From the IMG/VR virus record IMGVR_UViG_3300014835_000052: a stretch of 64,000 nt of DNA. One strand, given 5' to 3'. How positions within the stretch are numbered: the stretch's first letter is position 1; each line of letters begins with the position of its first letter. The stretch is from a virus. A model generated the notes under the pieces. That model was not told where the DNA came from, did no database searches, and saw only the letters and a program-made list of their open reading frames with translations. A program made the position numbers and the translations under genes. This document shows, in pieces, positions 10,279 to 61,471 of this stretch.

Positions 10279-11349
10279 TTAAATTCCTATAATTTTTGTT
10301 AAATTTTTATCAAATCTTACATTTAATAATGATTTGATATGAACTCTTTCTTTAAATTGATTACAATGAATTAACATTCCAAAGTAACTATTGACAACTT
10401 GTTTAAGATTATTACTATAGAGTTTACTATGTAAATTTTCAATAGTCGTCCTTCTTATATACTTACAAAATGGCTTTATTATATATCCAACAAAATTAAT
10501 ACCCATATCTACAGTATTTATTTCTAATTTATTTGGATGGAAATCTAATCCTAATTTATTGAAAGTGTATATTTCTATTTTTCGATAAATCCCTTCAAGG
10601 TCTTTTCCTGATTCACCCATTAATAAAATATCATCTACATATCGTATGTAATATTTTACCTTCAACTCATGCTTGATATATTGGTCTAATCCATTAAGAT
10701 AAACATTGGCAAAGAATTGACTAGATAAATTCCCTATTGGCAATCCGAATCCTTTTTTAGCATTGAATAAACTTTTATGTTTTGGTACTTTATTTAATAA
10801 TTCTTCATTACTTTTAATAAAACAATTTTTAGTTGGATCATTATGGAGAATTATCTTAGTTAAATTAAACCACCAAGGATCTGTAATTTTTTTGCTTAAT
10901 ATTTCTTCTAAAATATTCTTATTAATAGATACAAAAAAATTTGCTATATCAGCCTTAAGGAATGATGCCTGTTGTGTGTGATTTTTAGTTACTGATCTAA
11001 TGTTTTTCTGAACTTTAATAGATGATTTTAATGTACCCTTTCCAGGAATACAGGCATAACTGTCATGGATGAAAGATTTATGAAATTGATCAGAATAACG
11101 ATTATATAAAATATGGTGAACTATTCTGTCTCTAAAACTAGCAGCCCAAATTTCTCTCGCTTTTGGTTTAGTAACAACAAAACATATAGACATTCCTGGT
11201 TCATATGTATTATTGATTAAATCATAATATAAATCCATCACATTTCTATTAAGATGTTCTTCAAACTTTTGAACACTTAAAGTGTTTTTCTTACCCTTTC
11301 TACAATCAAAATACGCTTGAAATACTTCAGATTCGGTTAAATCACACAA
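10279..11349 (-). CDS. DGR reverse transcriptase (ORF is open to 11439; likely start TTG 11349 or ATG 11376)
   Basis: GLPIGNLSSQFFAN (DGR-type SQ motif) and YIRYVDD; AGGAG lies 8 nt before TTG 11349. Confidence 0.95.
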   Translation of the reverse strand: MCDLTESEVFQAYFDCRKGKKNTLSVQKFEEHLNRNVMDLYYDLINNTYEPGMSICFVVTKPKAREIWAASFRDRIVHHILYNRYSDQFHKSFIHDSYACIPGKGTLKSSIKVQKNIRSVTKNHTQQASFLKADIANFFVSINKNILEEILSKKITDPWWFNLTKIILHNDPTKNCFIKSNEELLNKVPKHKSLFNAKKGFGLPIGNLSSQFFANVYLNGLDQYIKHELKVKYYIRYVDDILLMGESGKDLEGIYRKIEIYTFNKLGLDFHPNKLEINTVDMGINFVGYIIKPFCKYIRRTTIENLHSKLYSNNLKQVVNSYFGMLIHCNQFKERVHIKSLLNVRFDKNLTKIIGI

Positions 11350-11353
11350 GATA

Positions 11354-11484
11354 TAATCTCCTGACTGCACGAACATAGTTCGCATTAGTCTTATTGTTGT
11401 TGCTCTGGTTGCCATTGTTGAAATTCTGGTTCCAAGCATTGGTAGCAGTAAACTCCGTACTAGACCAGTAATTGGTCGCAGTAA
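11354..11484 (-). repeat. DGR template repeat TR
   Basis: 131 bp, 44 adenines, 12 AAY codons in the VR frame; matches 12004-12134 and 2152-2282. Confidence 0.97.
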
Positions 11485-31791: not shown

Positions 31792-31846
31792 ATTCTATCC
31801 TTGACTTTTGAGTAAAACTTAGATATAATATATCTGTAGTTGGTTA

Positions 31847-46286: not shown

Positions 46287-46315
46287 ATTATACAGTAAGA
46301 TGTCCTATATGTCAA
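46287..46315 (-). promoter_or_regulatory. perfect sigma70 consensus promoter upstream of gp32
   Basis: TTGACA-17-TATAAT on the minus strand. Confidence 0.85.
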
Positions 46316-47772: not shown

Positions 47773-47801
47773 ATTATAAGCTCATTTTGAACAAAAGTCA
47801 A
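47773..47801 (-). promoter_or_regulatory. sigma70-like promoter
   Basis: TTGACT-17-TATAAT on the minus strand. Confidence 0.8.
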
Positions 47802-49101: not shown

Positions 49102-49761
49102 TTAATATCCTTTCACTTTCCTAAATTCAGATCGTGCTTCAATAGCGGGTAACATCCAATCCTTAGTTTTTTCAACAAAAATTTGAGGATTTTCATCATC
49201 TACAGCAATTAAAATAACAATTTGCTCGGGCATAGTAGTTTTAGTCATCTCTGAATACATCATTGAATAGAAGGCTCCTTGTAAAAAATAGGAAGAAATC
49301 CACTCCTTCTTTTTTAACTTCCCAGATGTCTTAAAATCAATAACAGACAATACACCTTTATAGTTTGCTATGCAATCAGTTGTTCCCGCGATTTCAAGTT
49401 TGTGTGAAAATAACATTGATTCTAAACAAAATATATTATCAATGTCATCTAAAATGGGTTTAAATCCCGTCCACATTTCAGCATCATACATACCAAGCTT
49501 GACTTCTTCATTATTTAAATAGACTTCACATAATGTATGTATTCTAGTCCCCCGAGAAGATGCTCTATTGGAAATCCTATTAGCTTCTTCTTCTCCAACT
49601 TTAGCTCTCCAAGCTTTTATTGATTCAATAGAACCTAACGATGTTACAGTAGTTACAGATGGATACTTCTTCCCATTGGGGGTTACATATAACCTTTTAC
49701 CATCTTCATTGATTCTAGACATCGTTGGGAGGTCTAATTCCATATGATTAAACATTATCAT
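49102..49761 (-). CDS. PD-(D/E)XK exonuclease
   Basis: YPSVTTV, RGT.IH, AGTTDCI, IDFKTS, YFLQ...Y. Confidence 0.8.
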   Translation of the reverse strand: MIMFNHMELDLPTMSRINEDGKRLYVTPNGKKYPSVTTVTSLGSIESIKAWRAKVGEEEANRISNRASSRGTRIHTLCEVYLNNEEVKLGMYDAEMWTGFKPILDDIDNIFCLESMLFSHKLEIAGTTDCIANYKGVLSVIDFKTSGKLKKKEWISSYFLQGAFYSMMYSEMTKTTMPEQIVILIAVDDENPQIFVEKTKDWMLPAIEARSEFRKVKGY

Positions 49762-49952
49762 TGTACCTCAATAATTCATCTTCAGATAAAGGCAATCTTA
49801 ATCCTGATTCTAAAACCTCTAATTGGATGTCTGTTAAATTAAGATCCGTTAAAAGCTCATATAATTCACCTTTATCAATTTTATCAAAGATTTCAATAAA
49901 ATATTCAAACAATTCTTGCTCATTCATATAAAGTTCCTTAAATTGATGATAG

Positions 49953-50336
49953 TTATTTACTTAGAATTGGATAATAAGATTCAATAGCATGTTTAAAAAA
50001 TGTAATCATTGTATCGTCGGTCTTCATAACCATAGCATACCGATCCCCATATGCTAAAATGCCGGTATATTCATAGCCCGACATAAGAGTAATAGTCACT
50101 GGAATTTTATTATCAATAAACTCCTGGATATGTTGATCATGGCCATTCATCTGAAGCGCATATGGGATTTTAGGTTGCTTTGGTGGTTGAGGAGACTTAA
50201 TCTTTTTTTCTTGCTTAGGTCTAGGTGATCCTTGCTTAGGTCTGGATCCATTTTCAGATTTAAGGATATTTCCTGTTACCTGGGTGGTTTGTCTGGGAGT
50301 TTTTAATGACAGAATGGGTCTATTTGTAGTTTCCAT
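49953..50336 (-). CDS. hfq: Hfq-like Sm-fold RNA-binding protein with basic N-terminal extension
   Basis: IPVTITLMSG....G.....DRY...K...FFKHAI...P aligns by eye with the E. coli Hfq Sm1/Sm2 motifs. Confidence 0.7.
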   Translation of the reverse strand: METTNRPILSLKTPRQTTQVTGNILKSENGSRPKQGSPRPKQEKKIKSPQPPKQPKIPYALQMNGHDQHIQEFIDNKIPVTITLMSGYEYTGILAYGDRYAMVMKTDDTMITFFKHAIESYYPILSK

Positions 50337-50349
50337 GATATAATTCCTA

Positions 50350-50721
50350 TTAATTTTCAGGTAAATCGGATAAAAATAATGCCAATCTTTTTTTATACTC
50401 TTTTTCTAACTTGCGTTCTTTAATAATTTCAAGCATAGCTTCCCGATGAACTATTGCTGTATCTGTAACAAGAAATAGTTTAAAAATATCAAAAACACCA
50501 TGTTCATCAGTAAGGCTATGGATAATATGTTGATTCTGTAGATTTAACATATATGTCATAACATGATCCATTTGCTCTTTTAGCCAAGTATGTGAATCCA
50601 TTAATTCTTCCAACACCTCATCTAAAGATCTAACACCATCAATATTTAGATATCCATCTAGCATCATTTCATCTTTGTATAGTAGTATTTTTTCATATGC
50701 TGATTTATTGCGATCTTTCAT
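50350..50721 (-). CDS. hypothetical protein
   Basis: ORF track. Confidence 0.5.
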   Translation of the reverse strand: MKDRNKSAYEKILLYKDEMMLDGYLNIDGVRSLDEVLEELMDSHTWLKEQMDHVMTYMLNLQNQHIIHSLTDEHGVFDIFKLFLVTDTAIVHREAMLEIIKERKLEKEYKKRLALFLSDLPEN

Positions 50722-51001
50722 TAAATACCCCAGACCATTTTTTAAGTTTCCAAATTTTAGCGGCCTTTGCTAAATTTACTTCACGTTCACTTACAACATC
50801 ACAATTCATTAATATTTCAATCATCGCCAAAAGATCCCCCAATTCTTCTTCTAAGTGTGCTTTATTGGATAGATTATTCCATTTAGTATCCATGCCAAAT
50901 CTAAATACCTTTGAGATCGCTTGGCTAACTTCTGCACATTCTTCTTGTGTAATTAACAATGCTTCATTTATATTCATAACATTCATAATATATATTTTCA
51001 C
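50705..51001 (-). CDS. MazG-like nucleotide pyrophosphohydrolase
   Basis: EECAEV.QAISK..RFG...LEEELGDL. Confidence 0.75.
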   Translation of the reverse strand: MKIYIMNVMNINEALLITQEECAEVSQAISKVFRFGMDTKWNNLSNKAHLEEELGDLLAMIEILMNCDVVSEREVNLAKAAKIWKLKKWSGVFNERSQ

Positions 51002-51053
51002 TTAATTGTTGATGAAGTGTATATTTTACATTATTTAAAGCAATTGTCAAGAT

Positions 51054-53071: not shown

Positions 53072-53105
53072 AAAGGTGAGATGGTCTTAAGACCATCTCA
53101 CCTTT
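53072..53105. terminator. perfect 34-bp palindrome, bidirectional terminator
   Basis: AAAGGTGAGATGGTCTT|AAGACCATCTCACCTTT followed by T-rich tail. Confidence 0.8.
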
Positions 53106-53535: not shown

Positions 53536-54042
53536 TTACTCTAATATTTCTGATAGTCTCTGAAGAGCATCAGCATTATGTAAGTTGAAGACTGGTATGC
53601 TGTTGGCTATTGCCAGTCGTATTGCTTGACCTGTGCCGCCTGTACTATAGGAAGTACTGGTTTCAGCACCATCCGGAGTCCAGCATAGAACAAAATCTAC
53701 TGGAGTTTTTAGGTCATCTCCTAGTATCTGGTGCATGTTACGAGCCATAAGTTTCTTAGCACCTTGGCTTAACTTGCCCCAGGCAGGATGGTATTTGCTG
53801 GCTAGTTCTAATGCTTCATAACTACACGCAACAACACCATCTATACTGTCATTGAAGCCTAACCACGGTATGTAAACGACTTTGTTGGTACAACCTTTAG
53901 CGAAGGCTTGATCTGCACCTTCAGCTCCACCAGAGTTTAATCTGTATCCATTATTTTCTAGCCTTGCTGCAACACGTTGCATAAGAGTCATTATGTTCTC
54001 TGGAGTCTTACGACTACCAATTCCAGCATAAGATTTAGACAT
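53536..54042 (-). CDS. SLOG-family (DprA/YspA-like) nucleotide-binding protein
   Basis: YAGIGSR, SGGAEGAD, GGTGQAIRLA; start ATG 54042 has an AAGGA RBS. Confidence 0.75.
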   Translation of the reverse strand: MSKSYAGIGSRKTPENIMTLMQRVAARLENNGYRLNSGGAEGADQAFAKGCTNKVVYIPWLGFNDSIDGVVACSYEALELASKYHPAWGKLSQGAKKLMARNMHQILGDDLKTPVDFVLCWTPDGAETSTSYSTGGTGQAIRLAIANSIPVFNLHNADALQRLSEILE

Positions 54043-54065
54043 GGTAAATTCCTTAATGATAGTGA

Positions 54066-54326
54066 CTAAGCAGATAAGAAGGTTCGTAGTACATAAGCTA
54101 ATATTTGGCACATAGTACCTTGGAGTGTTATATTATCGTGGGTTACTGTCCAAGTACCGTCGATGTTTGATATAGCACAATAGCCTAGATTACCGTTAGG
54201 TGAAGTGCTGAATAGGTTGCCTAGTTCTAAAGTATCTATAAAGCGACTGTTGCAGTATAATCTGCTGTCTTCTGAGTTACTAAGGACTGAATCTTTTGCA
54301 GCTAATTTTGAATCGAGGAAGGTCAT
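54066..54326 (-). CDS. hypothetical protein
   Basis: ORF with GGAG RBS. Confidence 0.5.
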   Translation of the reverse strand: MTFLDSKLAAKDSVLSNSEDSRLYCNSRFIDTLELGNLFSTSPNGNLGYCAISNIDGTWTVTHDNITLQGTMCQILAYVLRTFLSA

Positions 54327-54343: not shown

Positions 54344-54649
54344 TTAAGGAAATAAACCTAAATAACCATCTAAAAATCTTTTTATAGTTTCACCATGACA
54401 CCTCTTTGGAGCACAGAAACATTGTAATAATAAATCTCCATTTATTGCTATTTGATATAATCGTCGAAGTTCAACCATTACTACCTGATCTCTTGATCTT
54501 ATCTTATCAGAGAACCATATATTATATTCTTCACAAACTCTATTACGCTCTTTATTAGATGTATCTAACATTTTATATGGATTACCTAAAGGAGAACCAC
54601 GCCCAATATATTGAGAATTTTCTTTTAAACCATTGATTATTTCAATCAT
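54344..54649 (-). CDS. DUF4326-like protein
   Basis: YIGRGS..GNPY...L.C.CAP..CHG. Confidence 0.75.
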   Translation of the reverse strand: MIEIINGLKENSQYIGRGSPLGNPYKMLDTSNKERNRVCEEYNIWFSDKIRSRDQVVMVELRRLYQIAINGDLLLQCFCAPKRCHGETIKRFLDGYLGLFP

Positions 54650-55314: not shown

Positions 55315-55929
55315 TTATTTTAGGGAAATAGTTTTCAATGCAAGATTGTAATATTTTCGTCTTTCATCTAGACCTAACGTTCCACCATTAATTTTTTTGG
55401 TGAGGGTGATAAAATCTTTAGAATCAGCATATTGATTTAGTTTATTAATATCCCAAAAATGGCACGCTGATGTTATTGCCCCTTCTAGGGTTTCGCAATA
55501 ATTGACCACTTCTTGTAAAGTCATATCAATACTTTCTGCTAATGATTGATAATTACTCTTTCCAGTGGTTTGAATAAATCCTCTACCCCGATATGTGTAA
55601 CCATCGCCAGAATCCTCATCTCCATTGCCTAATCTATCACAATATACTTTATTAGCAATCATTTCTGGATTTCTGTTATATGGGGCAGCAACAGATTCAG
55701 ACTTAAATCTTGACGGCCATGTACAACACAACCCTTTAGTAGAATAGTTTAAATTTTCTTTCATTACAGTAAATTGATTTGACTCGTGCGAACATTGTGA
55801 TAACCAAGCTGCAACCCTATTTTTAGTGTTAATATTATATTTTGGTAATACTTTATTGAGAGTATCAACCATTTCTTTAGGTTGTTTATTATTGGGACAG
55901 ATTATTTTAAATTCTTCTAGAGTAATCAT
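55315..55929 (-). CDS. GH19 endolysin
   Basis: AWLSQCSHES, ENLNYS, YRGRGFIQTTG..NY, TKKINGG..GL..R. Confidence 0.9.
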   Translation of the reverse strand: MITLEEFKIICPNNKQPKEMVDTLNKVLPKYNINTKNRVAAWLSQCSHESNQFTVMKENLNYSTKGLCCTWPSRFKSESVAAPYNRNPEMIANKVYCDRLGNGDEDSGDGYTYRGRGFIQTTGKSNYQSLAESIDMTLQEVVNYCETLEGAITSACHFWDINKLNQYADSKDFITLTKKINGGTLGLDERRKYYNLALKTISLK

Positions 55930-56612: not shown

Positions 56613-57383
56613 TCATAATAATTTATCCTGGCTAATATATACGGGGATTTCTATTTTTCCAATATTAATAATATACTTCTCTATAAAATGATTTACAAAA
56701 TAATTTAATTTTCCCTTTTTAATTCCAGTAATAAGACCTCTAATTCTATCCGTTAAAGTTTGCATTGTTGTTAAATCGGCAATATTGCCATCATGGTCAA
56801 AATAACACAAATCTCCGTGGTGCGTATAACTAAATCTTGGAAATGATGTCACAATATCAATATTATTTACCCACCTGAAATGTTTTATTTTCAATGAATC
56901 TGTGTATTCTTTATTTCCAACTTTAGGGCTGCCAAATGTGTATAATATAGGATTTGCACCCATTAAATTACAACGATTAGCAGCTATAGTAGACATTGCA
57001 GCACCCAATGAATGACCAGTAAACCAAATATCTCTAGAACTATATTCAAACAGATAATTTTGGATGGGTTTCCATACATTATCCACACTATTCAAAAACC
57101 CCTTATGTACTTTACCTTTACAAAAATTGGTGGCTGGAACTAATTGTCTCTTTAAATCTGTAATAATATCTTCTAATTCATTAGGTTGTGTTCCTCTACA
57201 TACAATTATTACATCTGTATCATCATATAAAAAGTATGCTTGACTCCCTTTATTATCAATAAAAAATGAATTATATCCAAATGAACCAAAATCTTGATTG
57301 TCTGTATAAGAAAGATTGCTAAGGTTTGCCATTAATAATGTAATTTCTTTTTGTGATTTTAATTTAAGCATCGTAGTCCTCAT
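56613..57383 (-). CDS. class 3 lipase-like alpha/beta hydrolase
   Basis: RGT, VHKGF, GHSLG nucleophile elbow, TFGSPKVG, D.V, terminal H. Confidence 0.85.
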   Translation of the reverse strand: MRTTMLKLKSQKEITLLMANLSNLSYTDNQDFGSFGYNSFFIDNKGSQAYFLYDDTDVIIVCRGTQPNELEDIITDLKRQLVPATNFCKGKVHKGFLNSVDNVWKPIQNYLFEYSSRDIWFTGHSLGAAMSTIAANRCNLMGANPILYTFGSPKVGNKEYTDSLKIKHFRWVNNIDIVTSFPRFSYTHHGDLCYFDHDGNIADLTTMQTLTDRIRGLITGIKKGKLNYFVNHFIEKYIINIGKIEIPVYISQDKLL

Positions 57384-61364: not shown

Positions 61365-61471
61365 ATTATACATCAATTATTGATGGAGTCAATCCTTTTT
61401 TTTTTCTTTCTTCCTAACCTTCCTGTCTCAAGGTAAGGGGTAATCATCGTTCATCTAGAGGCAGAAGTCAA
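61365..61471 (-). promoter_or_regulatory. tandem early promoters homologous to 555-658
   Basis: TTGACT-17-GATGAT (spacer 16/17 identical to that at 561-577) then TTGACT-16-TATAAT. Confidence 0.8.

Follow-up and report, generated by a model that had tools for sequence, protein, structure and literature searches.

In many bacteria, regulation by small RNAs centers on Hfq. In this protein, Gln8, Phe/Tyr42, Lys56, and His57 make up the pocket for uridine and the RNA 3'-OH, Tyr25, Ile30, and Lys31 form the A-R-N site, and a patch of Arg16, Arg17, and Arg19 predicts annealing activity. T-even phages exploit the Hfq of their host, both as a neck plug (PMC12929587) and via the sRNA ArcZ (bioRxiv 10.64898/2026.06.19.733364). 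T4 borrows the host hexamer to serve temporarily as a second gate for the genome beneath gp14; E. coli Hfq is bound to the gp14 hexamer through contacts that involve Lys31, Gln33, Thr49, Ser65, and Arg19, an arrangement proposed to be specific to the T4 lineage (PMC12929587). It is also already known that databases recognize Hfq domains in some phage proteins. Entries named "Hfq-like domain-containing protein" exist for mycobacteriophages in UniProt, and BFVD contains the protein of phage nickie together with many other uncharacterized viral Sm-like folds. Our literature searches on phage-encoded or viral Hfq returned nothing specific.

The gene analyzed here lies in a 64,000-nucleotide stretch of viral DNA (IMG/VR record IMGVR_UViG_3300014835_000052), referred to as the window, which has a GC content of ~31%. 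The window belongs to a T4-type myophage, as it encodes gp32 (136 bits), a gp59-like loader, baseplate wedge and hub proteins, gp2-like and gp4-like proteins, a tail tube protein, and the terminase small subunit; gp13 and gp14 of this phage lie outside the window. These T4-type genes confirm the original view that the Hfq-like gene is carried by a phage. The best gp32 matches were from cyanophage-type T4-like phages with 43 to 53% identity, and the public runs listed as matching were all DNA data sets, contributed by five studies of freshwater or lake metagenomes. A megablast search of 50,697 phage records with the 10-kb region surrounding the gene found no match, and neither did an Rfam search of the window. 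A reverse transcriptase that had been noticed earlier was recovered within the tail-fiber region (positions 10279-11439, minus strand; phrog_1423, 317 bits), as would fit a diversity-generating retroelement carried by a T4-like phage.

The Hfq-like protein, P0001, is encoded on the minus strand at positions 49953-50336, stop codon included, by an ATG-to-TAA frame of 127 codons (127 aa). Direct reading of the sequence reveals a ribosome-binding site, AGGA, at 50345-50348, 8 nt ahead of the start codon, and the preceding gene ends only 13 nt ahead of it, a spacing that represents tight phage-operon packing. Identical copies of P0001 are present on at least five metagenome contigs. An ortholog, P0002 (contig L004), shares 75% identity with P0001 and the same gene order, and P0003, from a third related phage, shares 52% identity. 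Between the P0001 and P0002 genes, dN/dS was 0.087 overall and 0.28 for tail residues 1-57; in the core, dN was 0.068 and dS was saturated. Because of these contig copies, the syntenic ortholog, and the dN/dS values, the gene is real and under purifying selection, its tail included. An internal start at Met63 was considered and rejected, as Met63 lacks a preceding Shine-Dalgarno sequence and the orthologs retain the tail.

The gene is embedded in a minus-strand block that reads, in order, promoter, MazG-like gene, 123-aa gene, Hfq-like gene, 59-aa gene, and PD-(D/E)XK-like gene. The first gene of the operon (50705-51001) encodes a MazG-like pyrophosphohydrolase (PF03819, 28.2 bits). The 123-aa gene directly upstream of the Hfq-like gene (50350-50721), to which no family was assigned, and the 59-aa gene directly downstream (49748-49927) are both syntenic in orthologous contigs. 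The PD-(D/E)XK-type nuclease-like gene (49102-49761) scored 21.7 bits with PF12705, just missing the cut-off of 22. With the 123-aa and 59-aa genes as its immediate neighbors, the Hfq-like gene of the window has no DnaB-type helicase gene beside it.

At the head of the operon, a sigma70-like sequence, TTGACA-16-TAAAAT (51023-51050, minus strand), matches the consensus at 11 of 12 positions and is a candidate early promoter. The pattern TTGACW-N15-18-TAWAAT occurs seven times in the window, compared with 1.27 expected, and none of 100 shuffled sequences reached seven. The near-consensus sites are found at 631-658, 1873-1901, and 31801-31829 on the plus strand and at 46287-46315, 47773-47801, 51023-51050, and 61365-61392 on the minus strand, and they are probably phage early promoters. 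Given this enrichment, the Hfq-like gene is likely part of an early operon driven by the host polymerase. The orientation of the seven sites agrees with that of the gene blocks. Elsewhere in the early region, unusual genes were observed on the minus strand at 56613-57383, 55315-55929, 53536-54111, and 54344-54649; the region includes a class 3 lipase (PF01764, 89 bits), a weak chitinase/lysozyme-like match, a weak DprA-like match, and a DUF4326 gene. At 53072-53105, a T run follows a perfect palindromic hairpin of 15 bp; the element resembles a strong terminator, possibly working in both directions, between blocks of early genes.

Profile searches support the Hfq-like identity that had been assigned by manual alignment. 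The Pfam Hfq profile (PF17209) matched residues 67-123 of P0001 at profile positions 3-59 of 64 with 34.3 bits (gathering score 27, E = 1.9e-8). With the NCBIfam equivalog TIGR02383, P0001 reached 37.6 bits, which is under the cut-off of 61.7, so by this measure it is not an ortholog-grade Hfq. Sequence matches in the PDB were essentially only Hfq chains. The AlphaFold2 model, for which 27 relatives were used, reveals an Sm/Hfq core at residues 66-123 (49968-50141, minus strand), in which a helix (residues 65-75) is followed by five strands (residues 79-84, 89-97, 101-105, 110-114, and 118-123), all with pLDDT above 90. The top Foldseek matches of this model were the Hfq structures of Caulobacter (6gwk), Thermotoga (4y91), Staphylococcus aureus (1kq2), and E. 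coli (3rer), with an RMSD of 0.8 to 1.0 Å over ~60 residues, 22 to 27% identity, and target-normalized TM scores of 0.8 to 0.94. Likewise, the structural look-alikes in the ESM Atlas were Hfq clusters. The Sm2 motif Phe114-Lys115-His116-Ala117-Ile118 (49983-49997, minus strand) fits [YF]-K-H-A-[IV] and supplies Lys115 and His116, two residues of the proximal nucleotide pocket. The model thus bears out the Sm/Hfq fold anticipated in the original prediction, and P0001 is predicted to have the fold of Hfq, the bacterial Sm protein. When residues 58-127, which comprise the core, were modeled as four copies, the oligomer prediction scored 0.12 against a mark of 0.42, which speaks neither for a ring nor against one.

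To map the binding surfaces residue by residue, P0001 was aligned with E. coli Hfq (from NC_000913) using HMMER and MAFFT, and both alignments reproduced the kept and changed positions that had been read by eye. Among the kept positions, Asp9, Pro21, Val22, Gly29, and Gly34 correspond to Asp67, Pro79, Val80, Gly87, and Gly92 of P0001, and Asp40, Phe42, Lys47, and the KHAI motif (Lys56-Ile59) correspond to Asp98, Tyr100, Lys105, and Lys115-Ile118. In the proximal pocket, Asp67, Arg99, Tyr100, Lys115, and His116 are kept, and Gln8 is replaced by His66. On the distal face, the canonical A-R-N residues Tyr25, Ile30, and Lys31 have no match and are occupied by Thr83, Tyr88, and Glu89, respectively. 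Similarly, the arginine patch of the rim is absent, as Arg16, Arg17, and Arg19 become Ile74, Asp75, and Lys77. Position 39 (Phe39 in Hfq) is a glycine in the clade of P0001 and an arginine in the remaining family.

The residue calls of the original prediction are thus confirmed, with two qualifications to its view that only the proximal face survives. The conserved Tyr100, Lys115, and His116 and the loss of the canonical distal and rim residues agree with that view; the pocket, however, has histidine in place of Gln8, and the distal hairpin holds two aromatic residues, Tyr88 and Tyr90. Tyr88 occupies the position of Phe30 in S. aureus Hfq, and Tyr88 and Tyr90 could form a residual distal purine site. 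His66 is likely a functional variant of the pocket, since histidine is nearly invariant at this position in the phage family described below (132 of 135 members). In Hfq, Lys56 and His57, as well as Tyr55, contribute to the structure of the ring, too, and the invariance of Lys56 and His57 is for this reason no proof of ligand binding.

The remainder of P0001 is an N-terminal tail (residues 1-65; 50142-50336, minus strand), which is basic, proline-rich, and predicted to be coil. The 65 residues before His66 include 13 Lys/Arg, three Asp/Glu, and 10 Pro, giving a net charge of +10 and matching the basic, Pro-rich extension described previously. No secondary structure was predicted by AlphaFold2 before residue 59. 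At the other end, only three to four residues follow the last strand, leaving P0001 without a C-terminal tail of the Hfq type. The tail, which had been suggested as a replacement for the rim, is more than a basic substitute of this kind: it contains a conserved R-x-T-L-S-L motif. The P0001 variant of this motif, RPILSLKTPR (residues 6-15; 50292-50321, minus strand), with RPILSLK at residues 6-12, is invariant between P0001 and P0002, and 60 of the 134 tails in the family carry the pattern R-x(0-2)-(T/S)-(L/I)-(S/T...). Short motifs that are conserved within disordered tails typically mediate protein docking, and the conservation seen here suggests that the tail has a specific docking function.

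A short RPKQ repeat was also observed in tail residues 30-49 (50190-50250, minus strand), in the forms SRPKQG and SPRPKQE. P0002 is missing one seven-residue copy of this repeat, which indicates that tail length varies by repeat slippage. In P0026 (residues 1-33) and P0018 (residues 1-20), N-terminal extensions beginning with G-R-T-L-(T/S)-x-R-P precede cores of the canonical alphaproteobacterial Hfq type; this is the short motif also seen in the tails of the phage family, and its presence could reflect docking that is shared or could result from a mis-called start.

When 1.8 billion representatives were searched exhaustively with phmmer, 28 matches to P0001 were returned, and a profile search extended the family to at least 374 proteins (E ≤ 1e-5), almost all of them metagenomic and many encoded on contigs of 50 to 110 kb. 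One candidate, P0005 (653 aa, seven stretches matched via "MVLKTDGTLWTFG" repeats), proved to be a repeat protein of the RCC1 type and was discarded as a false positive. The hallmarks of the family are G-H-D (L-Q-D in Hfq), S-G (N-G in Hfq), R-D-K-Y-T-I, and (F/Y)-K-H-A-I-E-S-F. Conservation was counted over 135 aligned members in E. coli Hfq numbering. Lys56 and His57 are invariant (135/135), as is an acidic residue, Asp or Glu, at position 9 (135/135), and position 41 is Lys or Arg in 132 members and position 42 Tyr or Phe in 133. On the distal face, Thr is the most common residue at position 25 (62/135), position 30 is Glu, Asp, Ser, or Thr in 95 of the 135, and position 31 is Thr, Glu, or Val. 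At the rim, position 16 is Gln in 112 members, position 17 is Asp in 72, and position 19 is Lys or Gly. A kept proximal pocket combined with changed distal and rim positions is thus a trait of the family and not a peculiarity of a single gene. The family tails are basic as well, with a median length of 39 aa and a median net charge of +5, whereas the median C-terminal tail is 4 aa.

A family HMM built without P0001, P0002, and P0003 gave 72.7 bits for P0001 (E = 1.5e-24) and 38.5 bits for E. coli Hfq. In a FastTree phylogeny of the cores, P0001-P0003 grouped with P0007 and P0012 inside the family with a support of 0.98, and deeper nodes were weak. By these comparisons, P0001 belongs to a phage-specific Hfq-like family and is not a recently captured host hfq. 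Among isolated phages, the Nickievirus phages hairong (hairong_042), nickie, phiK7B1, ZY21, and Nican01 carry a family gene, and Nican01_00034 is the only record annotated as "hfq." A tblastn search of isolated phages with the distant member P0059 found no match, and PHROGs contains no family for P0001 or its relatives. Judging from the sequences, what is new is a large, phage-only Hfq-like family with a distinctive conserved architecture.

In the main lineage of the family, the Hfq-like gene occupies a fixed position in the order PhoH-like gene, ~225-aa gene, Hfq-like gene, DnaB-type helicase, primase, and ligase. This order was observed in seven of seven contexts examined, namely six metagenomic loci (L007, L008, L009, L012, L013, and L014), which encode the distant family members P0009, P0062, P0059, P0006, P0066, and P0085, and Pseudomonas phage hairong, and in all seven the stop codon of the Hfq-like gene lies 0 to 16 nt from the helicase start or overlaps it. 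The close spacing of the Hfq-like gene and the helicase gene was noted at 10001-11679 in L007, 10001-11716 in L008, 10001-11734 in L009, 7001-8695 in L012, 7001-8685 in L013, 7001-8751 in L014, and 5929-7691 in L010. Phage Nican01 has the same helicase-adjacent order. The Nickievirus-like replication module was seen to be a conserved arrangement without a recognized helicase loader. We also considered an exonuclease plus annealing-protein pair and asked whether the PD-(D/E)XK nuclease beside the window gene is a homolog of the ~225-aa gene that precedes the Hfq-like gene in Nickievirus-like phages; this was rejected, as BLASTP gave E values of 0.024 and 94 and no Pfam family is shared.

We propose that P0001 is a phage-owned protein of the Hfq family that would be made early from a host-type promoter and would assemble into a ring, as Hfq does. 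Its proximal pocket, consisting of His66, Asp67, Arg99, Tyr100, Lys115, and His116, would bind U-rich single-stranded RNA, typically the 3' tails left by terminators. Since the canonical A-R-N site for A-rich RNA and the arginine rim are absent, poor matchmaking is expected, and P0001 would not act as a classical sRNA-mRNA matchmaker. The N termini of Hfq are located on the proximal side, so six basic, disordered tails could project from that side of the ring, provide a second nucleic-acid contact, and add non-specific affinity, and the R-x-(T/I)-L-S-L motif within them would allow a partner to dock. Overall, U-tailed RNAs, be they host sRNAs, phage transcripts, or primers, would be captured, protected, or withheld to the advantage of the phage. 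An Sm ring acting on U-rich single strands is the most likely reading of the combined analysis. We regard the chance that P0001 captures RNA in this way as about even, with sequestration of host sRNAs, as conjectured in the original prediction, or protection of phage RNA as possible outcomes.

The helicase adjacency in the main lineage fits a role in DNA replication at least as well as a role with RNA. In this alternative, which goes beyond the original prediction, the ring works with the phage replisome, either in helicase docking and loading or in the handling of RNA primers and single-stranded DNA; the tail motif is a docking peptide, and the T4-like copy keeps that role or derives its own from it. 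The seven helicase-adjacent contexts and Nican01 favor such an accessory, as do the short motif conserved in a disordered tail and the surroundings of the window gene, which lies amid MazG-like and PD-(D/E)XK-like genes with the gp59-like and gp32 genes ~3 kb away. However, the helicase-adjacent cases represent one phage lineage with a conserved genome order and amount to approximately one evolutionary observation. Moreover, in the T4-like clade the gene is not beside a helicase gene and occupies a different position in the phage of P0003, the window phage already possesses a gp59-type loader and gp32, and the ~225-aa neighbor is not homologous to the nuclease of the window. We therefore consider a replication accessory credible but doubtful. 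In bacteria, small KH-like DciA proteins act as helicase loaders. The bolder version, in which the entire family is a replisome factor and no RNA chaperone, with the tail docking an Sm ring on the helicase or primase via R-x-T-L-S-L for helicase loading or RNA-primer handover, is rather unlikely, and the same applies to its corollary that the T4-like copy is an offshoot of a helicase-linked system.

As the window phage is a T4-type myophage, P0001 might instead supply a ring of the phage's own for the gate beneath gp14. Of the residues that contact gp14 in the host protein, however, Lys31, Gln33, Thr49, Ser65, and Arg19 become Glu89, Thr91, Asp107, Ile124, and Lys77, so that the positive surface is lost; the gene resides in an early-type operon and not among late structural genes, and most family members occur in siphophages beside replication genes. 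A neck plug of this kind appears very unlikely. The original prediction also proposed that P0001 subunits could poison host Hfq by joining it in defective mixed hexamers, for which the shared fold and the Sm2 motif kept at the subunit interface would be suitable. Subunit exchange does not readily occur between Hfq hexamers, which are highly stable. This stability, the identity of only 22 to 27% to cellular Hfq cores, and the membership of P0001 in an old, separate phage family make mixed hexamers unlikely and dominant-negative poisoning highly improbable. That P0001 is a recently captured host hfq, a passenger without adapted function, would be compatible with its score above the Pfam Hfq threshold. 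Such an origin is extremely improbable, considering that P0001 falls below the NCBIfam equivalog cut-off (37.6 versus 61.7), scores twice as high with the phage-family HMM as with the Pfam Hfq profile, and is conserved under purifying selection in three diverged T4-like phage lineages.

With hundreds of clusters, the Hfq-like family would represent a natural separation-of-function variant of Hfq. It could reveal phage interference with, or replacement of, host riboregulation; alternatively, it could expose an unsuspected link between an Sm ring and DNA replication. Cultivable members are available in the Nickievirus phages of Pseudomonas syringae.

Comparing P0001 with bacterial Hfq (PF17209; 6gwk, 1kq1/1kq2, and 3rer), the two share the Sm fold, the [YF]KHAI motif, Asp9, Asp40, an aromatic residue at position 42, Lys56, and His57. 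S. aureus Hfq additionally resembles P0001 in having a basic residue at position 41 followed by Tyr42. P0001 differs from the bacterial proteins in the replacement of Gln8 by His, the loss of Tyr25, Lys31, and Arg16/17/19, and the lack of a C-terminal tail, as well as in being phage-encoded, having a core identity of 22 to 27%, and carrying a 65-aa basic N-terminal tail with a motif. The Gram-positive Hfq proteins of Bacillus subtilis and S. aureus likewise combine a conserved proximal pocket with a poor rim, for which weak annealing is predicted, whereas they possess aromatic distal purine sites (Phe25 and Phe30) and no basic N-terminal tail. The neck gate of T4 also brings together a T4-type phage and an Hfq ring, the ring being predicted in the case of P0001. 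However, T4 uses the host protein through positively charged distal and rim residues (PMC12929587), which are changed in P0001, and the P0001 gene is apparently early. The Nickievirus Hfq-like proteins and their ~370 metagenomic relatives share with P0001 the G-H-D, S-G, D-(K/R)-Y, and (F/Y)KHAIES(F/Y) signatures, a basic N-terminal tail that carries R-x-T-L-S-L, and the lack of a C-terminal tail. Whereas the Nickievirus genes directly precede a DnaB-type helicase in siphophages of ~70 to 110 kb, P0001 is encoded by a T4-like myophage without an adjacent helicase, has Gly instead of Arg at position 39, and carries the longest tail seen in the family, at 65 aa.
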